A stretch of 64,000 nucleotides of DNA, taken from contig JANRLW010000051.1 in assembly GCA_033762295.1 (NCBI GenBank), positions 1-64,000 of the forward strand, read 5' to 3'. Each line of letters starts with the position of its first letter. Position 1 is the first letter of the stretch. This document shows positions 3-47,500 of this stretch, one piece after another. The translations under genes were made by a program, and so were the position numbers. The notes under the pieces are model-generated. The model saw only the letters and a list, made by a program, of their open reading frames with translations. It ran no database searches and had not been told where the DNA came from. The DNA comes from Capsulimonadales bacterium. GTDB taxonomy: Bacteria; Armatimonadota; Armatimonadia; Armatimonadales; Armatimonadaceae.

Positions 3-2837
3 CTGTTCGAACTGTCTACCGGGAAAAAGGTAGGGACGCTCCGGATGAACCGCCCCGGCGACGGGATGGGCGCGGTCGCCTTCGCGCCGGACGGCAGCGG
101 CGCCATGGTGACCGGGGGCGCACATGGCCCGCCCGATTCCGACTTTCTGATGCTCTGGAATGCCACCTCCCCGAATGATCCCAGAGCCGGCGCATTACTG
201 CACGGGCACGAGCGATTCGTCCTTGCGGTCGCATTTTCGCCGGATGGCAAGACGATAGCCAGTGCGGGGCGGGATCGTGCGATCCGTTTGTGGAACCGGA
301 CGACCGGTGCGCCGATATCCGTCCTGGGCGGTGCGCAACAGATTCTCGCGGTCGCCGCGCAACCGGGACCGGACGGGAAATATCTGGCGAGCGGGGGCGC
401 CGACGGTTTGGTGCGGATATGGGATCGTCGTACGGGCGAGAGGAAACTGGTTCTCACCGGACACACCGGATCGGTTACCTCCGTCGCCTATACCCCGGAC
501 GGCAAACTGCTGGCGAGTGGTGGTCGTGACCGGACGATTCGGCTCTGGGATGCGGAGACCGGCCAGGCGGTCAGAACCGTTACCGCCGCAACGGGCGTCG
601 TCCATGCCCTGGCGTTTCTGCCGGAGGGTAAGGGTTTGATTGCGGGATGCGCCGGTAAGGACGGCGGCAATGGCACGATCCTTCGGATCGCCACGGAAAC
701 GGGTCAGGTCGTGAAGACGTTCGAGGAGACCAACACGGTCGGACCGGTCGTCGCCATCGCCGTATCTCCGGACGGGACATCGGTGGCGGCCGGCACCGGA
801 ACCATCGGTTCGAGTCAGGTGCGTTTCCACGATAACGAGACCGGAGCGCTCCGGAAGACGGACGAGATTCCGATGCCGGTGACCTCCGTTGCGTTTTCGC
901 AGGATGGCAAGATGGTCGCCGTAGGTACCGCACAACGGATGAGAGAGGATAACGCCTCGCCCGTCGGTGAAGAGATCCGCCTGTATCACGGACAGACATT
1001 CGTTTATCAAAAATCCTTGCTTGGCCCACGGGTCCGTAAAGATACCGATCCCGATGAATCTCCGGAAGCCGGGATCGCCGCTTTGGCCTTTGCGGAAAAA
1101 GGAAAGGCCCTGGTCAGTTCCGGGTTGGATGGCTGTCTTCGACTATGGAACCCCCGTACCGGAAACGGTCCGATTACCACTCTCCCCGGCCAACATCTGG
1201 GCGAGGCGACAGGCGCTATCGCTGTCTATGGCGATGATCGAGTGGCTACCGGCGGACGCGATAACGCGCTCCTGATCCACAAGACAAGTTCCGCCCTGGA
1301 AACCGGACTATTGCTGGCGACTCTATTGTCCGTTTCCGGTGACCGACCGGGCGATCCCGATGACGATTATCTGACGGTAACGGGGGACGGCTACTACGAC
1401 GGTTCCTCCGGAGCGGCACGGCGCATTACCTGGCGTGTCGGCGACGATCTGTTTCCGGTGGAAGCCTACGAGGACGCCCTGCGCAAACCCGAAGAGGTTC
1501 GCAAAGCCCTGGTGGGTAATGTGACGGATGCGCGGAGCACCCCGAGCGGTGGAAATGGGGTCCCCCCTTCCGCAGAACCGATGATCGCCCCGCTCCGCAA
1601 CCGGTTCGCCAGGGGAGAGGTCGTACCTCCGCAGGTCGCTTTCGAAATTCCTTCGGATGGCGACTCGCTCCCGAATGCGAACATGGTGACCGTCCGAGTG
1701 GCCGTCAGCGATGCCAAAAAAGTCGACCGTCTGGAGGTGCTCGCCAACGGACGAGCCATCGGTGCAAAACCGATCCAACTCGGTTCCAAGCCGATTCAGC
1801 TGGGGAGCAAGCCCATACAACTTGGCAGTAAGCCGATCCAACTTGGCTCCAAGCCGATTCAGTTAGGCAGTAAACCGATTCAAATGGGATCGAAAATAAT
1901 CCCGTCCGGTCACACGATTGAGCAGACCTTTGAGGTGAAGGTCCCCATTCCCGCCGGCAACGACCCGGTTACCCTGACCGCCGTGGCCTATGGCGCCGAT
2001 AACCTCTCCGGGCGTGAACAGATTCATCTCCTGCGCGGTGGCTCGGTAGGAACCGGTGAAACCGGCGGTAATCTGTACATTCTTGCGATAGGGGTCAGCG
2101 CCTACCGGAATCCCAGGTTCAACCTCAAGTATGCTCGCAATGATGCCGAAGCATTTTCCAACTTGTGGAAAGCTCCGACCGGTGGTGGCATTCCCCTGTA
2201 CAACAAGGTGGAAACGCGACTGGTTTGTGATGCGGAAGCGACCACCTCCGGAGTTCGTGCCGCACTCGCGAAACTATTGGAAACGGCCACGGAGAAGGAT
2301 ACGGTCGCGCTCTTTTTGTCGGGGCATGGAATGCGGATCGGGGAGGGAAACTACTACTTCGCCACGACGGATATTGATCCCTTAACGGCGGACTCCGTGG
2401 CAAAGACGGCGTTGCCCTGGACCGCCCTACAAACGACACTTGCCGGCATCAAGGCACGACGCGTCCTTCTCTTCCTGGATGCCTGCCATTCCGGCGGGGC
2501 ATTGGGCGAAGGACAGCAGGCGAGTGGCGAACGAATGGCGGAACTCCTGGCAAAACGGGCCGGAGTCCTGGTTTTTTCCTCGAGCCGGGGCAGCGAGTAC
2601 TCCTACGAACTGGATAGCCGGAAGCACGGTGCCTTCACTGCGGCGCTCATGGAGGCCATCGGCGGAAAAGCCGACCTGGATATCGCGGGCGGCGGCAAAG
2701 ACGGCGTCATCACGGCCGAGGAGATGCTGGCCTTTCTCCGTGCCCGGGTTCCCCAGCTCACCGAGAACCGCCAAACCCCCACCTGCCCTCTCCTGCGTGA
2801 TTTCGGAGACGCCTATCCCATCGCGCGTCTTCGGTAA
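3..2837 (+). CDS. WD40-repeat + Ig-like + caspase-like (peptidase C14) protein, 5'-truncated by window edge
   Basis: Frame is open from position 3 (LFELSTGKKVGTLRM...). Multiple WD40 repeats (GHERFVLAVAFSPDG...IRLWN; GHTGSVTSVAYTPDG...IRLWD). C-terminal caspase fold motifs LAIGVSAY, FLSGHG (His), FLDACHSG (Cys), HGAFT, QTP. Confidence 0.9.
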   Translation: MFELSTGKKVGTLRMNRPGDGMGAVAFAPDGSGAMVTGGAHGPPDSDFLMLWNATSPNDPRAGALLHGHERFVLAVAFSPDGKTIASAGRDRAIRLWNRTTGAPISVLGGAQQILAVAAQPGPDGKYLASGGADGLVRIWDRRTGERKLVLTGHTGSVTSVAYTPDGKLLASGGRDRTIRLWDAETGQAVRTVTAATGVVHALAFLPEGKGLIAGCAGKDGGNGTILRIATETGQVVKTFEETNTVGPVVAIAVSPDGTSVAAGTGTIGSSQVRFHDNETGALRKTDEIPMPVTSVAFSQDGKMVAVGTAQRMREDNASPVGEEIRLYHGQTFVYQKSLLGPRVRKDTDPDESPEAGIAALAFAEKGKALVSSGLDGCLRLWNPRTGNGPITTLPGQHLGEATGAIAVYGDDRVATGGRDNALLIHKTSSALETGLLLATLLSVSGDRPGDPDDDYLTVTGDGYYDGSSGAARRITWRVGDDLFPVEAYEDALRKPEEVRKALVGNVTDARSTPSGGNGVPPSAEPMIAPLRNRFARGEVVPPQVAFEIPSDGDSLPNANMVTVRVAVSDAKKVDRLEVLANGRAIGAKPIQLGSKPIQLGSKPIQLGSKPIQLGSKPIQLGSKPIQMGSKIIPSGHTIEQTFEVKVPIPAGNDPVTLTAVAYGADNLSGREQIHLLRGGSVGTGETGGNLYILAIGVSAYRNPRFNLKYARNDAEAFSNLWKAPTGGGIPLYNKVETRLVCDAEATTSGVRAALAKLLETATEKDTVALFLSGHGMRIGEGNYYFATTDIDPLTADSVAKTALPWTALQTTLAGIKARRVLLFLDACHSGGALGEGQQASGERMAELLAKRAGVLVFSSSRGSEYSYELDSRKHGAFTAALMEAIGGKADLDIAGGGKDGVITAEEMLAFLRARVPQLTENRQTPTCPLLRDFGDAYPIARLR
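1767..1892 (+). repeat. Six tandem 21-bp units encoding KPIQLGS x5 and KPIQMGS x1
   Basis: Read directly: AAACCGATCCAACTCGGTTCC / AAGCCGATTCAGCTGGGGAGC / AAGCCCATACAACTTGGCAGT / AAGCCGATCCAACTTGGCTCC / AAGCCGATTCAGTTAGGCAGT / AAACCGATTCAAATGGGATCG. Confidence 0.97.
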
Positions 2838-10130: not shown

Positions 10131-10874
10131 ATGCCGGGAATCAACCTTCTGCGTACGACCGCCAGCCTGCTGCCGATGGGCGGTGAGGCGGCGATCAAGA
10201 CTGCGCTGACTATGCCCACTGCGTCCACTAGCGATTCCGGTTCCGTCCGAACGGCGGGACGCGCCGATGCGTATGAGGCCAACTCTGACGCCGCCCTCGC
10301 CCTGCAGGCGGCGGAAGGCGACATGGAGGCGTTTCGTGTGCTGGTCGAACGATACAAGCGGCCGATGGCGGCCCTGGTATCGCGGATCGCCGGAAACCCC
10401 GACGATGTGGACGATATCGTTCAGGAACTGTTTCTGCGGGCGTGGAAAGGACTCCCTCGCTTTCGGGGCGATGCCCAGTTCTCCACCTGGCTTTACCGGA
10501 TCGCCGTCAATACCGCCATAAAGCACCGATCCCGACACCGGAACGAAACGTCCCTTTCCCTTTCCACCGAGGAGATGAGCGGAGGGCTGGAGCGACTTTA
10601 CGTGCCGGAGGAGGCGACCCCCCACCAGGGCGGAGACCCTTTCCGCGCCGCCCATCGCAAGGAACGCGAACGGGCCGTGCGGGATGCCGTCCAGTCGCTG
10701 CCGGAAAAACAGCGCGCCGTCGTCGTCCTCCACTACTTCGAGGGCCACTCCTGCGAGGAGATCAGCAAGATCGTCGGCTGTTCGCTCGGCACCGTCTGGT
10801 CCCGACTGCACTACGCCTGCAAACGACTCAAGAGCGTGCTCGAATCGTCCGATGGTTCGGAAGGAATACTTTAA
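10131..10874 (+). CDS. ECF RNA polymerase sigma-70 factor
   Basis: DIVQELFLRAW, FRGDAQFSTWLYRIAVN, LPEKQRAVVVL...GTVWSRLHYA. Exact start uncertain. Confidence 0.9.
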   Translation: MPGINLLRTTASLLPMGGEAAIKTALTMPTASTSDSGSVRTAGRADAYEANSDAALALQAAEGDMEAFRVLVERYKRPMAALVSRIAGNPDDVDDIVQELFLRAWKGLPRFRGDAQFSTWLYRIAVNTAIKHRSRHRNETSLSLSTEEMSGGLERLYVPEEATPHQGGDPFRAAHRKERERAVRDAVQSLPEKQRAVVVLHYFEGHSCEEISKIVGCSLGTVWSRLHYACKRLKSVLESSDGSEGIL

Positions 10875-10943
10875 CGCCACCGACCGAACCGACGAGGGCG
10901 GATCTCCGGAATTTGTGATCGACGAATATTGTATACTATAAGA

Positions 10944-11927
10944 ATGCAAGCCATGATCGGGAAATTACGGAAGCGCTGGCAGTGCCAGAGAATCGCTCCG
11001 CTCCTGGTTCCGTTCTGCGAAAGCGAACTGCCGGAGCCGATGCGATCACGCGTCCTGTCGCATCTGGATCACTGCGAAGCCTGCCAGGAGCAACTGGCCG
11101 AAATCTCCGCGATGGGCGATTTCTTCCGCGCCAATCCGCCGACGCCGGCGTCGTCGCCGAACGATCTCTGGGCCAGGCTCGAACCCGCGATCCGCTCGAC
11201 CGGCTCGATCGGGACCACCGCCCCGATTCGCCGTCCCGTGACCGCCCGCCCCTCTCCGGCGACCCAGTGGCGTCGGGGCTTCATCGCGTTCGCGCAGGCC
11301 GCCCCGGCGGTCGCCGTGGTCGTCGCCGTTTTCCTGGTCGGTTTGGAGCGGTTCGGTCCCGCCTCGTCCGAACGTCCGTCGGCGGAACGACCGATCGCCC
11401 GCACCGCCCCGGATAGCCGCATCACTATCGTCCCCCTGCCCCGGCGCAGCCTCGACTCCGCATTACCCGGTAAACCCGGCAAGATGCTGGCCGCAGCCAC
11501 GCCTGCCACGAGCAAACCCCGGCCCGCGACCCGACCGACACCTTATAGCGTCAAACCCCGGATGATGGCGCGGACGACACCGGTTCGCGCACTCTCCGGC
11601 GGGCGGACGATCGCCCGCCGCGCGACGGAACCCACCGTCCCGGGTCTTTCCGTTGCCGGACGGACCGCATCCCCGGTTCTGACCCCGAAGGAGGCGCCCC
11701 GCGTCGTCGCGATGGCGAGCGAAACGATGTCGCGCTTCACTCTGCCTCTGCCCGATCCGGACGCCGCCATCGACGCCGTCCGGAGAGAAGGGCGATCCGA
11801 GGAGGAACGGTTCCGCACCGTGTCCTGGACACCGGGGGAGGACGAAAGCGTCCGCGCGGATTCAGCCGTCGAAACGGCCACCACCCTCTACCGCCAGCAG
11901 ACCATGTTCTCCTACGGGGCGCGGTAA
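10944..11927 (+). CDS. Zinc-finger (ZAS/zf-HC2) membrane anti-sigma factor
   Basis: HLDHCEAC motif, one TM (AVAVVVAVFLVGL), Pro/Arg/Ala-rich C-terminus; directly downstream of the ECF sigma. Confidence 0.8.
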   Translation: MQAMIGKLRKRWQCQRIAPLLVPFCESELPEPMRSRVLSHLDHCEACQEQLAEISAMGDFFRANPPTPASSPNDLWARLEPAIRSTGSIGTTAPIRRPVTARPSPATQWRRGFIAFAQAAPAVAVVVAVFLVGLERFGPASSERPSAERPIARTAPDSRITIVPLPRRSLDSALPGKPGKMLAAATPATSKPRPATRPTPYSVKPRMMARTTPVRALSGGRTIARRATEPTVPGLSVAGRTASPVLTPKEAPRVVAMASETMSRFTLPLPDPDAAIDAVRREGRSEEERFRTVSWTPGEDESVRADSAVETATTLYRQQTMFSYGAR

Positions 11928-11940
11928 GCGAGGCGGTCGG

Positions 11941-13812
11941 ATGCGCATCAATCTCCTTCGATTTTGTCATGGCAACGCGGTCCGCGTCTGTCTGCTCCGC
12001 GCTTATCGGGCCGCCGGGTCGCCCGCCGGATCGGGGAGTCTGGCCGTGGTCGCGATTTCGCTGCTTCCGGTCACCGGTCTTGCGCAGACGCCCGCCGCCC
12101 CTCCGTCTTCCGGGGAAGCGTACTCGCCGGAGACCCGGCCTCGTCCGGTACCGGCTTCCCCCCGTGCCGTGCCGAACGGCAAGATTGCGCCGCGCCCCCA
12201 CCCCCCGACCGGACTGCCCACCCCTTCGACCGTGCGGACCCTTCTGCGACAGGGAGACGATCGCGTTCGGGTGGCGGATATGCGGGGCGCAGCCCTCTGT
12301 TATGCCCGGGCGGCGGAAAATTCACCACGGGACCCGCTCATCCGTCTGGCTCTGGGCGTCACCCTCGCCGAACGGAACAGGCCGGAGGACGCCGTCTTCC
12401 AGTTCCGAAAGGCCGTCGAACTGGCCGAGGATGATGTGATTGCCGCCCTTCTGCTACGCAATGCCCTGATGGAACGAGGGGATAACGCCGAAGCGCAGGA
12501 CATCTACCTCGACACCTATCGCCGCTTCGGGCGGAAAACCGGCGGGTCACCGGACGCCACCACCTCCATCGTCCGGCTTCGGGCCGGGCTTCGGGAGAGT
12601 CCCGGTTCGCCTATCCTTCATCTGCTGCTCGGCGACGCCTGTCAGTTGTCCGAACGCTGGCCGGAGGCGGATGCGGCCTACGAGGAAGCGATCCGTCTCG
12701 CGCCGAACTGGGTCAAACCGCGCGTCAATCTCGGGCTGTCCCGCCTGGCGCAGAATCGGGCGGCGGAGGCGATCGCCCTGTTCGAAAAAGCGTTGAAGCT
12801 GGACCCGGGCAACGTCCAGGCCCAGTTGTGGAAGGGAGACGCCCAGCTTCGCACCGGTCAGAGCCGCCAGGCGATCACGACCTTTCAACGCGTTTCCAGG
12901 GTCGGTGCGGTACCGGTGACCATCGCCTCACAGGCAATGACCGGTATCGGACGAGCGTATGCCAATGTTCGCCAGGATACCCGGGCGCTGACCGCGCTGG
13001 ATGCCGCGCAGAAACTGGCGCCGAACGACCCGACCCCGTCCGCCGTCATCGGCGAGATCAACCTTCGGAACGGTGACGCGGAAGCGGCGGTCAGCGCGTA
13101 CGATACCGCTCTTCGCATCACCCGGGACGGCGGACTGTTCGCCCAGCGGCCCGTGCTGTACCGATCGCTGGCCGAGGCGTTGCTCTCCGCCGGGAACGCA
13201 CGGCGGGCGGAGGAGGTGCTGGCGCAGGCGTTGACCGAGGAGCCGGGTCAGGCCTCGCTCTGGCACCGACTGCTCGCGCATGTCGCCCTGAAATCCGGCG
13301 ACCCGGACGCGGCGCGACGTCACCTTAGGAACGCACTCGAGGCCGCCACCGGTCCCTATCCGCTGGAAACGCTCCGGGCGATCGACGCCCAGGGATTTCT
13401 CACCGAGTTTCGGGCCGAATACCGCAAACAGCGGGAGTTGCAGACGGTCGGACGCTATCAGGAGACGGGGAAGAACGGGGTCGAGATTACGGTGTACGGC
13501 CGGAATGCCACCAATCGAGGCATGCGTATCTCCGCCACTGCCGCCCTGGCGAACATCGCGCGTTATCGGAACGAGACCACGGAGGAGATCACCCTGCGAC
13601 GGGAACTTACCGCCCTGAGGGAAAACCCCTGGGACTGGTTCCTTCTGGCCGAGATCTACGACCGGCAATCGGGAGAATCCGGCAACGCCCGCGAAGCGTA
13701 CCTCCGTGCGCTGGAGCAGAACGCGCGGACCGGTGGCCTGACCGAGGCGGCGTTACAGTGGGCAAAGAAGCGGAACGCCGTTCTCACCGAAACGAGCTAC
13801 AAGCCGAAATAG
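11941..13812 (+). CDS. Exported tetratricopeptide repeat protein
   Basis: Signal-like segment (...PVTGLAQ) followed by many TPRs (YEEAIRLAPNW, FEKALKLDPGN). Confidence 0.85.
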   Translation: MRINLLRFCHGNAVRVCLLRAYRAAGSPAGSGSLAVVAISLLPVTGLAQTPAAPPSSGEAYSPETRPRPVPASPRAVPNGKIAPRPHPPTGLPTPSTVRTLLRQGDDRVRVADMRGAALCYARAAENSPRDPLIRLALGVTLAERNRPEDAVFQFRKAVELAEDDVIAALLLRNALMERGDNAEAQDIYLDTYRRFGRKTGGSPDATTSIVRLRAGLRESPGSPILHLLLGDACQLSERWPEADAAYEEAIRLAPNWVKPRVNLGLSRLAQNRAAEAIALFEKALKLDPGNVQAQLWKGDAQLRTGQSRQAITTFQRVSRVGAVPVTIASQAMTGIGRAYANVRQDTRALTALDAAQKLAPNDPTPSAVIGEINLRNGDAEAAVSAYDTALRITRDGGLFAQRPVLYRSLAEALLSAGNARRAEEVLAQALTEEPGQASLWHRLLAHVALKSGDPDAARRHLRNALEAATGPYPLETLRAIDAQGFLTEFRAEYRKQRELQTVGRYQETGKNGVEITVYGRNATNRGMRISATAALANIARYRNETTEEITLRRELTALRENPWDWFLLAEIYDRQSGESGNAREAYLRALEQNARTGGLTEAALQWAKKRNAVLTETSYKPK

Positions 13813-33016: not shown

Positions 33017-35572
33017 TCAACGCTCCGTCACCGGAGTTTCCCCGGCGTTCAGCCCGCGCCGGACCAGAACCTGGCACTCGCGCAGATGGGCCAACGTTTC
33101 CCGGTCTCGGGCAGTCGCTTCCGCCTTTCGCAATCGAACGGACAGTTCCTCCAGCACCAGCCGCCCGGCGGCCCGATAGTCGCTGACCAGGATGTTGGAG
33201 GCGGTGGCGAGGTACGGAGGAACTCCGGCCCGGGTCAGTGACAATCGCATCGCACTCAGGTCCTTGACCGGCTCCCCCATGTTGTCAGAAAGCTGCCGCA
33301 GGTAGTTTCGTTGCAGGCTGCGCCGCAGCGGGTCGATCCGGAGGGCCCCCGAACGAATCTCGGCAAAAACGCCGTTCGTCAGGTCGGTCAGGTACTCCAC
33401 ATACGGGTAGCGATCCGCATCGTTGAAAAGGGCGGCGTCCTGCATGATGGTGGCCAGCGGCGGGGACAGCAGGGAGTTGAGCAGGGAGTTCTGACGTGCG
33501 GCGACCGCGTCCGCCAGAGCGAATGGCTGAATATTGGCATAGAGCGACGCGGGCATAAAGGCGGTCGGGCGCTGCAGGGCGTTGTCGAGCAGGAACTTGA
33601 GCGCGGCCTTCTGTCGGGCGCGTCCCACCCGCTGGAACTGCGCCCCGCGTCCTGCGAGCGTTCGGTTTTCCTGCACTCCGGCGATCTCCTTCACCGTCGA
33701 GCCGTGCAGGTCCAGCCAGGCATCCATGATCCCGCCGTACAGCTTTTCGGCATAGGCGAAGCTCCGTCCTTTCCGGTACGCGGTCGTCGGCAGGTAGGAA
33801 AGGGCGCGTTCCAGGTTTTTCAATCCCAGTCTCGTCGCTTCCAGCCGTTCCGCGCCGATGTTTTGCATCTGAACGCGCGGATCGAAAATATCCCGGTAGT
33901 CCTCCCCGGTCCAGATCAGCCAGGGGTTCGTCACCGCTTTCGCCGCCCAGGCATCCAGGGTCGGCCACTCCTCATTGGGCGTTCCGGCGTTCGGGATCGG
34001 CGAATATCCCCAGGCGATGACATGTTTATCGTAGGGAGCGATCTGCGCCATCAGGGACTCGGGGGGCAGTTTATCCTCCGGCTGCGCCACATAGTTGAAA
34101 CGTCCGTAGGCCATGATCGAAGCTACCGAGCCATGGCGGGCGGTGAACGCTTTGTCTCGCAGCTGTTTCACGGTGTAGGCGGTGCTGGCGCGATGGTTAT
34201 GACGCAGTCCCAGCGAATGGCCGACTTCATGCGCGATGACGTAGCGCAGCAAACGTCCGGTGACCTCGTCGGGCATCGGCAGGACCCGTGCGCGCGGGTC
34301 GGTTGCCGCGCACATCGTGTAGTACCAGGTCTGCGCCAGGGAAACCACCTGCGCCCAGATGAGGATATGCGCCGACAGGATCTCGCCGCTCCGCGGGTCA
34401 TGGATATTCGGCCCCATGGCGTTCGCTATCGGGGTCGACACCCAGCGGATCACGGAGTAGCGGGTATCTCCGGGGGTCCACTCCGGGTCCTCGGCGGCGG
34501 TCGGCGGATCACGCGCCACGATCGCGTTTTTGAATCCGGCCGCCTCGAAGGCGACCTGCCAGTCCTCCACCCCCTGCTTGAAGTACGGACGCCACTTTTC
34601 CGGCACTTCCGGGCTGATGTAGTATGTGATCGGTTGCACCGGTTCACTCAACGCCGCGCCCGGGTCCTTCTTTTCCAGCCGGTAGCGGGTGATGTAGGCC
34701 TTCTTTTCCACCCCGAAGGTCTTCTCTCCGGAATAGTCCTCAAAGTCGACCTTGAAATATCCCAGGCGTTCGTCGAAAAGACGGGGTTTCATCGGGGTAT
34801 CCGGCAGGAGCGTCAGACTGTGCCGGACGATGAAGGAGGCGCTTCCCGTACCGGGGAGCGCGTAGGTGAGCCGGACGGACGCCTCCAGATTTCGAGGGAA
34901 GGCCCGCACGTAGCCGATATCGCTCCGGCGCGGGTCAATAATTCCGCCGTTCAGGCCGCCGATCCGGAGGATGTTGCCGATCTTGAAATCGGGAATATCG
35001 GTCAAAAGAACATCGCCGATTTCGATCACGGCGTCGCCGGTCGGACTTTCCGCGACAATCGGGAACGCCAGGATCGTCACCGGTTCGCCGGACTGTTCCA
35101 GCGAGAGCCGCAGGGGATCTCGCTTCGATCCCTCCGCCGGATCGTTCCGCTGCGGCAGGCCATCGTCGCTCCGTTTCCTCGCCGCCGTATCGTACCCGGC
35201 GACCACGATACGGTCTCCGCGCCGCGACCACCGCACGAGGGATACACTGAGTTCCTCTCCGACACCCTCCGGAAAATCGGCAGGAACACGCGCTGCCTCG
35301 ACATGCCAGAGCATATCCCGGTCGTGCATGGCTTTCGGTATTTCCAGATACCATTTATCCTTCCGGGAGTAGACGGTGAAGAGGCCCGCGCGACGCGCGG
35401 CGTCCTTGACAATTCGCTCGTACGCCCCGGGGTCGGTCGGCGGTGTCTGCGCCGCCACCGGACGTACTCCGATCAGGAGCAACGCCAAAAGCAACGCCGA
35501 AAGCAACGCCGAAAACCGACGGAGAAACCGAAGGGGAAGCAGGGATTTTCGCATGTTCGCCTCAATAGCCAT
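33017..35572 (-). CDS. Zinc-dependent metalloprotease (Met-zincin, DUF5117/DUF4953-like)
   Basis: HEVGHSLGLRHN and SIMAY Met-turn, MKPRLFDERLGYF, DPRSGEIL; signal peptide. Confidence 0.9.
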   Translation of the reverse strand: MAIEANMRKSLLPLRFLRRFSALLSALLLALLLIGVRPVAAQTPPTDPGAYERIVKDAARRAGLFTVYSRKDKWYLEIPKAMHDRDMLWHVEAARVPADFPEGVGEELSVSLVRWSRRGDRIVVAGYDTAARKRSDDGLPQRNDPAEGSKRDPLRLSLEQSGEPVTILAFPIVAESPTGDAVIEIGDVLLTDIPDFKIGNILRIGGLNGGIIDPRRSDIGYVRAFPRNLEASVRLTYALPGTGSASFIVRHSLTLLPDTPMKPRLFDERLGYFKVDFEDYSGEKTFGVEKKAYITRYRLEKKDPGAALSEPVQPITYYISPEVPEKWRPYFKQGVEDWQVAFEAAGFKNAIVARDPPTAAEDPEWTPGDTRYSVIRWVSTPIANAMGPNIHDPRSGEILSAHILIWAQVVSLAQTWYYTMCAATDPRARVLPMPDEVTGRLLRYVIAHEVGHSLGLRHNHRASTAYTVKQLRDKAFTARHGSVASIMAYGRFNYVAQPEDKLPPESLMAQIAPYDKHVIAWGYSPIPNAGTPNEEWPTLDAWAAKAVTNPWLIWTGEDYRDIFDPRVQMQNIGAERLEATRLGLKNLERALSYLPTTAYRKGRSFAYAEKLYGGIMDAWLDLHGSTVKEIAGVQENRTLAGRGAQFQRVGRARQKAALKFLLDNALQRPTAFMPASLYANIQPFALADAVAARQNSLLNSLLSPPLATIMQDAALFNDADRYPYVEYLTDLTNGVFAEIRSGALRIDPLRRSLQRNYLRQLSDNMGEPVKDLSAMRLSLTRAGVPPYLATASNILVSDYRAAGRLVLEELSVRLRKAEATARDRETLAHLRECQVLVRRGLNAGETPVTER

Positions 35573-44534: not shown

Positions 44535-47500
44535 ATGACCAAACCGTTGCGTTTCTCGTCGTTTCCGTCTCTTCCTCCATGCCGTCTCGTCCGCCGGACG
44601 CTCGGTTCGGTCCTGGTGATCGGATCGCTGTCGTCGGGAAGTCCGGCGCAGCAAGCGGGATCACCGGTTCCCGCCGCGCCTCAGACGGTCCCTCCGACCG
44701 CTCCCGCACAGACCGCTCCGGCCCCGACCCCGCCGGCGACACCGGCACAGCCATCCTCACAGCCGACGCCCCCGAAAACCGGCCCGGCGAACCCGAATCC
44801 GTCCGTTCCGGGACAGCCGACCACCAACCCGACCGGCAACCCGACCGCCAACCCGACCGGCGCGCCGACCACCGTCAATCCGCCGCCGAAGCCGGACGAT
44901 ACTCGCCGACCGCAGGGAGTCGGCAATCCGCTCCTGCTTTCCTCGCCCGAAAACGCGAACGCGCCGATTCTTTATTACGATCGCAACGGCCGACGGATCA
45001 ACCGGCCCCAGCAGGGCCAGGGCGAGTTCGGGACGTATCAACGCGGCCCCATCCGCACGAGCGCGGAGGAGCGCAGCCGCGCCCTGTCCGACTTTGCCGA
45101 GAACTTTTTCGAGTACCCGCGCCAGTTGATCCTCTCTCGCCGCGCTTCGTTGCAGCGTCAGTATGAGCCCCGGCCCCCGGCAGGCGTTCCCGAATCCGTT
45201 CCGACGGACGCCGGAGGAACGACCGTACCGGCAACCGTTCCGCCGACCGTTCCCTCAACCGTTCCCTCAACGACGGTTCCTCCGACCGCCGTTCCTCCGG
45301 CCTCCGCTTCGCCCACCGTGGTTTCTCCGATCGCTGTTTCTCCCACAGGCGCCCCGCTTACGGTTCCGGTCGCTGCGCCCGCTCCGGTTCTCGCGTCGGC
45401 GGTCGTGGTTCCGCCCGCGGCCCCGACCGGGACGCCGACGGACGCATTCCGTGAGTTCGCCGATCCGCTGAGTCAGCTTTCGCGGAACGTCTCCGCCTCC
45501 GTCCCGGCCGACTATCTACTGGCTCCCGGCGACCGATTGACCGTCCGTTTCGGTTCGGCAACCCTCGCCACACGGGAGTTCGTGCGTACCGTCGACTCGC
45601 AGGGGAATCTTTCGGTGGAGGGACTGGGCCGCGTCAATGTCGCCGGTCAGACTCTCGAACGCGCCGAGCGTCTTCTGACCCGCAGTCTGGCCCGACTGTA
45701 TCGCGGCGTCCGGGCGGAAATCGCTCTGACGGAACTGCGGACGATCAACGTCACGATCACCGGAGACGCCTTCGCGCCCGGAACCTATACCATTCCGAGC
45801 GTCGCCACCGCCTTCAACCTGCTGTATGCCGCCGGCGGCCCGACGGCGGAGGGAACTCTGCGCCGTATTCGCGTCCTGCGGCGCGGGCGGGTCGTCGGCG
45901 AGCTCGATTTTTACGCGTTCCTGACCGGCAGCGGACGGGTCGCTGACATTCCGTTGCAGTCGGGCGACGTCCTGAATATTCCCGGTCGCCTGTCCCGCGT
46001 CACGATCGAAGGCGAGGTGCGACGCCCCGCCATTTTCGAACTGACCGAACGCGAAACGCTGCAGGATGCCCTGCGCTTCGCGGGCGGGGTCAAGGCGTCG
46101 GCGGTCGACCAGCGGGTTCAGATCACGACGGTCGATCCGGGCGCGGCACGAGTTCTGCGCGATATCAATCTGCGGGATCGCGGCACCTTCGGGCGTCTCC
46201 CGATTTACGATGGCGATATCGTCTCCGTCTTCTCCGTTCGCCCGCAGGTCACCAATCTCGTCACGATCGAGGGCGCGGTTGACCAGCCGGGCGACTATGC
46301 CCTGGCCCCCGGAATGCGTGTCAGCGATCTGGTACGGCGTTCGCGCGGCATTCTTAACGAAGCGTACCCGGAACGCGCCGATCTTTACCGCTGGCAGCCT
46401 GACAATACGCTCCGCCTGGTGCGAATCGACCTGGCGAAGGCCCTCGGCAACGATCCCGAGGCGAATGTGTCCCTGCAGCGCTGGGATCGTTTGCGCATCT
46501 ATTCCCGCCAGGAGGTGGAATGGACCGGCCGGAGGGAGGTCACGATACGCGGGGCGGTCCAGCGACCCGGTATCTACGACCGCAGCGACGGTATGCGTAT
46601 CCGCGACCTGCTGCTGATGGCGGGCGGTCCCACGCCGGAAGCCTATCTGCCCCGCGCCTTTCTGCTGCACCAGCGTCCCGACGCCTCTTTTTCCTATCGG
46701 GAGGTCCGGGTCGGCGAAGCGATCAAGGGCAATCCGGAAGACGACGTTTTGCTGGAGGATAACGATGTCCTCGCCATCTACCGTGTGAACGAGGCGCAGT
46801 TCCAGCCGGAGCATGTCGTGACGATTACGGGCGAGGTGGTCTCCCCCGGCATCTATCCGCGCGGCGACGGCATGAAGATCACCGATCTTGTCCGGCTCGC
46901 GGGCGGGTTCAAGCCATCGGCGGCAGGCGTTCTGGTCCAGGCTCACGGCCGACGAAGCCCGGAATCGGCGGACCCGCGCAATCCCCAGCGTCCCCCGGTC
47001 ACCGTTCCGTTCGACCGGACCGGCACGATTCCGGCGGACGCCGACCGCCCGCTGGACGATGGCGATGTAATCACCGTCCAGAGTCTCGGCGGTTACAAGG
47101 AGCGGGTGGAGATCGTCTATGTGCGCGGCGCGGTCGCCAACCCCGGTCCCATCGTGGTTACCTCCAACAAAATGCACCTGTCGGAAGCCATTGCCGCCGC
47201 CGGCGGACTGCGACCGGAAGCCTTTCCCGAAGGCACCGAGTTCGACCGCAAACGGGAGTTGATCGCCTCGGAAAAGCAGCGTTCGCTCACCGCCCTGATC
47301 AGCCAGCTCAACGATATTCTGAACCGGGATACGTTCCAGAGAGAACAGGCGAAGGCCGACGTGGAACGTCTGAAGACGATCAGCCAGGCGACGAGCAGCA
47401 GCAACAGCACCCTGATCCCGGGTCTGGGCGGAAGCACCCCGGCCTCCTCGACGGCGGTCAACGTCGCCAATAACCTGCCGCCGCGCGATCTGGTCACGGC

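Follow-up and report, generated by a model that had tools for sequence, protein, structure and literature searches.

A conserved heptad array in caspase-fold proteases of Armatimonadota as a candidate built-in peptide precursor for neighbouring NB-ARC-TPR proteins

Here we describe a locus of a Capsulimonadales bacterium (Armatimonadota; assembly GCA_033762295.1, genome G000) within a window of 64,000 nucleotides, which is the whole stretch of DNA analysed (contig JANRLW010000051.1, positions 1 to 64,000). The window begins at the contig end and opens on the 3' part of a gene for a WD40-Ig-Peptidase_C14 protease, whose features are collected in Table 1. The 5' part lies at the end of contig C78, which shares a 27-nt exact overlap with the window. 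It has a signal-peptide-like start and is located directly behind a gene for an NB-ARC-TPR (STAND) protein (C78:65836-68526), in which a domain search identified TIR_2, NB-ARC and TPR regions. The heptad array occupies a loop of the Ig domain. Farther along the window, at 10131-13812 on the forward strand, ECF sigma-like, zinc-finger anti-sigma-like and TPR genes follow one another in a row, as judged by reading the sequence.

Table 1 Features of the protease gene and its heptad array (window positions in nucleotides).
Feature	Position	Strand	Basis
WD40-Ig-Peptidase_C14 gene, 3' part, 944 aa	3..2837	+	
WD40 beta-propeller repeats	3..1310 (end approximate)	+	Pfam matches to WD40 and propeller families
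Bacterial Ig-like domain, interrupted by the array	1629..2040 (end approximate)	+	Big_7 match; AlphaFold strands
Heptad array	1767..1895	+	Five PIQLGSK and one PIQMGSK set between seven lysines in register (K589 to K631, open-frame numbering)
Six heptapeptides predicted as mature products of cutting after every lysine	1770..1895	+	Inferred from boundaries and acidic S1 residues
Peptidase_C14 caspase-fold domain	2082..2786	+	Pfam PF00656 above cut-off; best Foldseek matches MALT1 and metacaspases
Asp714, predicted S1-pocket acid	2142..2144	+	Invariant in 43/43 homologues; role inferred from PMC2064784
Catalytic His775	2325..2327	+	Invariant in 43/43 homologues
Asp826 (predicted S1 pocket) and catalytic Cys828	2478..2486	+	Each invariant in 43/43 homologues

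An AlphaFold model of the last 495 residues (68 sequences, pTM 0.86) has confident Ig and protease domains. The first array unit is ordered as a strand (block pLDDT 94) and the middle units are disordered (53-64); ESM Atlas returned only sub-0.9 Big_7/C14 leads. The caspase fold, His-Cys dyad and acidic S1 residues suggest a meta/orthocaspase-like enzyme with predicted cleavage at Arg or Lys. Acidic S1 residues of this kind are reported to set Arg/Lys specificity (PMC2064784), and by their position the C14 protease is likely Lys/Arg-specific.

The six units of the array start at 1767, 1788, 1809, 1830, 1851 and 1872 and translate as KPIQLGS five times, then KPIQMGS, with a seventh in-register Lys directly after them (1893-1895). 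The earlier note had described six distinct 21-bp units with 41 of 42 residues conserved, and re-reading of 1767-1892 bore this out, down to the exact codons for Ser (TCC, AGC, AGT, TCC, AGT, TCG), Leu (CTC, CTG, CTT, CTT, TTA) and Ile (ATC, ATT, ATA). Pairwise, the units differ at 3-9 of 21 nt, with a mean of 6.33. The tandem motif is found only once in the genome (5.16 Mb), and a genome-wide search gave no other carrier of it. Six KPIQLGS units occupy the same place, with different codons, in G003 and G014, two genomes of another genus, so an assembly artefact, which the earlier note had wanted checked, can be ruled out. Between-unit divergence exceeds what codons drawn independently at genome frequencies would give (P=0.001), is only marginally higher than own-gene usage predicts (P=0.045) and is ordinary under uniform synonymous codon use (P=0.38).

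We collected 43 close C14 homologues, the query included, from 81 matches; close matches were present in 14 of the 401 phylum genomes searched. Heptads occur in 39 of the 43, and further heptad-bearing members were found outside this set. Heptad matches in unrelated proteins were set aside as generic low-complexity sequence, and a metagenome locus scan yielded one partial locus. Among 160 C14 units, position 1 is Lys in 148 and Arg in 11, position 2 is Pro in 129 and Ala in 20, and position 3 is Ile or Leu in 155. Similarity among units is 84% within a protein versus 51% between proteins, synonymous sites are saturated and position 1 is basic in 159/160, all of which upholds the proposal of residue-level selection and function. 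A second C14 protease of the same genome (G000:C83:23894-30824, L118), with a C14-PEGA-like-TPR architecture, a signal-like start and no array seen, lies beside a DUF4062-nSTAND1-TPR gene; a like pairing occurs at L042.

The codon scrambling itself is synonymous saturation under purifying selection, in a mixture of young homogeneous and old arrays. Across 41 arrays with DNA, identical residues share the same codon in a fraction of 0.38, and the codon usage of each gene predicts 0.38 (Stouffer z -0.07). All units are distinct in DNA in 36/41 arrays, and adjacent units share a codon at 389/1072 positions versus 806/2131 for non-adjacent ones. Selection against recombinational collapse, which had been suggested as a possible cause, is thus not supported in general. 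The C14 arrays alone lean to over-dispersion (z 3.55 for six arrays that are related rather than independent), and this may leave room for a mild survival bias against slippage. The earlier picture of an old array rather than a recent slippage expansion needs qualifying, as the array is not static. Full-unit copy number among C14 homologues runs from 1 to 11, and block duplications are visible in the window array (units 1/4 and 2/5) and in G014, where units 1/5 and 2/6 are one base apart. A sibling-strain contig (run X1, 269 nt, depth 3) spanning 1812-2059 differs by two letters and has one extra exact copy of unit 4. The array is still turning over. Positional orthology of units was not detected between G000 and G003 or G014 (P 0.90 and 0.94) and is weak between G003 and G014 (P 0.08).

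An amino-acid repeat scan of 1297 long ORFs in the genome found eight repeats, of which the KPIQLGS array alone falls below the independent-codon expectation. Perfect peptide repeats near G000:C77 33094 and G000:C9 75371-79895 (an 8-mer x3 and a 5-mer x3) have codons more alike than chance, unlike the KPIQLGS array. Short 12-24 bp tandem repeats in the window at 44694-45343 and 35478-35527 probably encode proline-rich linkers.

The same scan revealed RPISIPD x4 in a loop of a probably exported TPR-CHAT protease (G000:C121:18432-21449, L119), whose gene is divergent from a cyclase-like NB-ARC-TPR gene and which is a second member of the module. These units, too, are scrambled in codons; they hold two prolines each, and the loop is predicted to be disordered. 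A further TPR-CHAT protease (G000:C132:5742-12041, L171) has one unit between two arginines and lies behind a SARP-like NB-ARC-TPR gene. Among the 120 CHAT homologues listed, arginine heptads are present in 60 of the closest 68 and in 0/52 of the others, and the dyad is intact (His 119/120, Cys 120/120). Several loci (L179/L216, L182, L190, L158) contain clusters of 2-4 CHAT genes whose array units are related but not the same, and some of these share one STAND gene.

The limits of the arrays were determined with units defined by their inner pattern, leaving the basic residue out of the definition. A Lys or Arg directly precedes the first unit in 27/27 C14 and 53/55 CHAT arrays; the last unit has Lys as its seventh residue in 27/27 C14 arrays and Arg in 55/55 CHAT arrays. 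Outside these brackets CHAT sequences depart from the unit, with matches at residues -2 and -3 in 5/55 and 4/55 and at the residue after the last Arg in 3/55. The C14 arrays are looser, with upstream matches in 18/27 and 11/27, at +1 in 17/27 and at +3 in 1/27. Single-unit minimal forms are seen in G000 C132 and at L179, L186 and L198. The conserved layout is therefore n copies of P-phi-x-x-x-x-K/R between n+1 basic residues, which, as read from sequence, is that of a propeptide cut at monobasic sites. Slippage expansion of a linker that is neutral or has a structural role only would account for the variable copy number, the disordered middle units and the ongoing duplications. We consider it highly improbable, since residues are conserved while silent sites are saturated, only one of the eight amino-acid repeats of the genome falls below the independent-codon expectation, and the same grammar appears in two protease families.

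In other phyla, distant WD40-Ig-C14 proteins carry a single RG-type motif at the array loop (22/50, by a pattern that missed some visible ones), so the heptad appears to be an amplified basic motif. As these proteins have a single such motif and no STAND of this type, the ancestral role was probably not peptide release. Abditibacterium-type C14 homologues (L042-L046) have no array and instead carry an RG motif behind the Ig domain; no NB-ARC partner of the array-linked type was found for them.

We next consider the neighbouring genes. The home genome has 11 NB-ARC matches, and all three array-bearing proteases adjoin one; its array-less CHAT (C116) has no adjoining NB-ARC. A STAND lies within 0-3.1 kb at 6/10 array C14 loci. 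Three others are cut by contig ends and L047 has none, which gives 6/7 informative loci, versus 0/5 array-less close and 0/69 distant C14 loci. At home-family CHAT loci a STAND is present in 12/21, with most of the others ending at contig edges, and L167 has neither array nor STAND. In a fresh CHAT set of 40 loci, covering 46/53 out-of-family matches (seven near contig ends were left out), a STAND was found within 1 kb at 12/21 array loci versus 0/19 array-less loci; L214, at a contig edge, was scored array-less though it carries an Arg-Ala array. Restricting the set to loci with 2.5 kb or more on each side gives 12/18 versus 0/10 (Fisher P 0.0009, overstated by kinship). Common ancestry links array presence with STAND pairing, and these counts are therefore not independent tests. 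The pairs differ in gene order, orientation and N-terminal effector; TIR effectors were assigned by Pfam, and cyclase-like and SARP-like ones were judged from sequence and the Pfam labels of relatives. PADLOC 2.0 gave no full-length system-specific match, only partial generic TPR, TIR, WD40-like and caspase matches for six proteins.

The paired STANDs have a common sensor type. The TPR parts of 27/30 are 30-39% alike mutually, versus 18-25% to the eight unpaired STANDs of G000, and their NB parts fall in different clades. Of the three exceptions, one is truncated, one is a second STAND further off and one is a true misfit. The four TIR sensors paired with C14 proteases group together (SH-aLRT 97, quick tree). 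Four residues separate paired from unpaired sensors: D682 (19/22 versus 0/8), N709 (20/22 versus 1/8), and R781 and E832 (each 18/22 versus 1/8). Plausibly, they contact the backbone, termini and basic side chain of a peptide. Sequence matches of the sensors in the PDB are peptide-binding TPRs, LGN and kinesin light chain, and more weakly Rap (E 0.003). Covariation between peptide and sensor similarity was not significant over 22 pairs (r 0.19, P 0.09) or with CHAT only (r 0.09, P 0.28).

We propose that the array is a built-in multi-copy propeptide, cut by the protease and read as heptapeptides by the TPR sensor of the neighbouring STAND, and we give this reading an even chance. The C14 protease is likely exported. 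Most C14 members start with a signal-like stretch, as read by eye; we relied on this reading because a screen by hydrophobicity failed to tell signal peptides apart (positive in 32/35 C14 and 49/57 CHAT proteins, yet also in 11/22 STANDs). An exported protease and a cytoplasmic STAND would need a diffusible link, which the array could supply. A trigger at the WD40 propellers would activate the protease, which would cut after each lysine and free about six PIQLGSK peptides. An oligopeptide transporter would import these into the cytoplasm (G000 has two SBP_bac_5 genes for oligopeptide ABC binding proteins), and the heptapeptide would bind the TPR sensor of the TIR-NB-ARC-TPR protein and activate its TIR output. 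Copy number would set the gain. Units would be kept identical by the requirement that every copy fit a single receptor and a single active site, while silent sites would drift to saturation between duplications. Some Armatimonas CHATs have no visible signal peptide and would signal inside the cytoplasm; none is visible either in array CHATs of one genus at L163-L165, L168, L158 and L159. The wider proposal is trans-envelope signalling in which a sensor protease is its own multi-copy peptide precursor with a paired NLR-like STAND as receptor, built twice in Armatimonadota (caspase-like and CHAT) with swappable TIR, cyclase-like or SARP-like outputs; we rate it at somewhat less than even.

Several observations count against a propeptide. 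Pro directly follows the basic residue in 129/160 C14 units, and a P1' proline blocks many proteases. The ordered first C14 unit may point to a docking or structural role, and 6/18 informative array CHAT loci and 1/7 C14 loci have no STAND neighbour. Clostripain, on the other hand, is reported to remove Pro-amide after Arg (PMC13709457). Because the Lys-Pro bond is the weak step, we place the propeptide reading no higher than stated and regard an uncut pseudosubstrate latch as its main rival, though an unlikely one. Here Lys-Pro or Arg-Pro units would fill the acidic S1 pocket and resist cutting, copy number would set the threshold, and the STAND would be linked in some other way. The P1' proline of most units and the ordered first unit are consistent with such a latch, as are derivation from the single RG-type motif of distant C14s and an RG in the last 16 residues of 62/120 CHAT loops, a possible true cut site. 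However, one site would be enough for a latch, and identical interiors with n+1 basic brackets are left unexplained, as are a dedicated TPR sensor type and pairing with two different protease families; the CHAT array is also predicted to be disordered.

Less probable again is a bait or activation loop with many cuttable sites, where nicking by the protease itself or another basic-specific protease would switch the enzyme on and the fragments would not signal, or, in a variant, an uncut array that is a multivalent docking site for TPR or propeller. Orthocaspases are described as needing autoprocessing (PMC5756287), and in the array-less Abditibacterium homologues the RG motif has moved behind the Ig domain. 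Direct STAND contact is possible for those Armatimonas CHATs that lack a visible signal peptide, but the signal-like start of most C14 members separates them from the STAND. A bait loop would also be expected to have varied rather than identical units, and does not explain the strict seven-residue spacing and lineage-specific interiors.

The propeptide reading invites comparison with the RRNPPA systems of Bacillota (Rap/Phr, NprR/NprX, PlcR/PapR, AimR/AimP). RRNPPA propeptides are reported to hold up to six identical pheromones in some cases, beside TPR receptor genes (PMC9765709, PMC11343458), and heptapeptides to bind the TPR cleft (PMC3763537). The likeness is one of layout, namely an exported precursor (export here being judged by eye), identical short peptides and an adjacent TPR-protein gene. 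These sources describe precursors processed outside the cell and a cytoplasmic TPR receptor (PMC9765709, PMC11343458, PMC3763537). NprX7, SKPDIVG, resembles a rotation of the KPIQLGS unit, as a resemblance only. In contrast, the array precursor forms a loop within a protease of 100-130 kDa rather than a small ORF. The RRNPPA receptor, as described, is an HTH or three-helix bundle plus TPR with no NTPase, whereas here it would be a STAND NTPase with a TIR, cyclase-like or SARP-like N-terminus. The hosts are Armatimonadota rather than Bacillota, and peptide release and binding are predictions here. We therefore do not assign the module to RRNPPA, given its receptor architecture and lack of a small dedicated propeptide gene.

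Bacterial WD40 meta/orthocaspases share with the C14 protein a Peptidase_C14 His-Cys dyad, an acidic S1, WD40 and a signal-like N-terminus, and the portions of those reports considered here describe no heptad array or STAND partner (PMC3501461, PMC5756287). The periplasmic TPR-CHAT anti-sigma DdvA of Myxococcus (PMC11506125) and the SAVED-CHAT/PCaspase cascade (10.1101/2023.06.23.546230) are likewise caspase-fold signal transducers with proposed self-cleavage, in one case across a membrane. As far as those accounts go, they act by releasing sigma factors or cleaving downstream proteins, and have neither a repeated peptide nor an NB-ARC-TPR partner. NLR/effector pairs with BASS motifs (10.1101/2020.01.06.895854) resemble the module in their adjacent NB-ARC-TPR gene and short repeated-looking motif. 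An amyloid signalling motif of RHIM/BASS3-like type linking protease and NLR was considered on this basis, as the IQLG of the unit also resembles a phi-Q-phi-G core. It is most doubtful: Gln occurs in only 18/160 units, Pro stands in place of the leading Gly, CHAT units have two prolines each, the motif is internal rather than terminal, and no matching motif was found in the NLR (P0082). We rejected a BASS/RHIM pair because the G-phi-Q-phi-G core is absent and no motif is shared between NLR N-terminus and partner C-terminus. The array motif is proline-rich, and information would flow from protease to NLR. Literature searches, mostly at title level, found no description of the protease/STAND two-gene module, which appears to be undescribed.

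To our knowledge, substrates have yet to be assigned to most bacterial caspase-like and TPR-CHAT proteases, and ligands to most NB-ARC-TPR proteins. The loci described here comprise some thirty protease/STAND pairs, and for every pair a synthesisable seven-residue ligand is predicted. Should the latch hold instead, the arrays would still provide tunable autoinhibition, acquired by two protease families. If the propeptide reading is true, a single two-gene unit outside Bacillota would combine NLR activation with proteolysis by a caspase fold and the logic of peptide pheromones, and a whole class of bacterial NB-ARC-TPR proteins would gain a predicted endogenous ligand.
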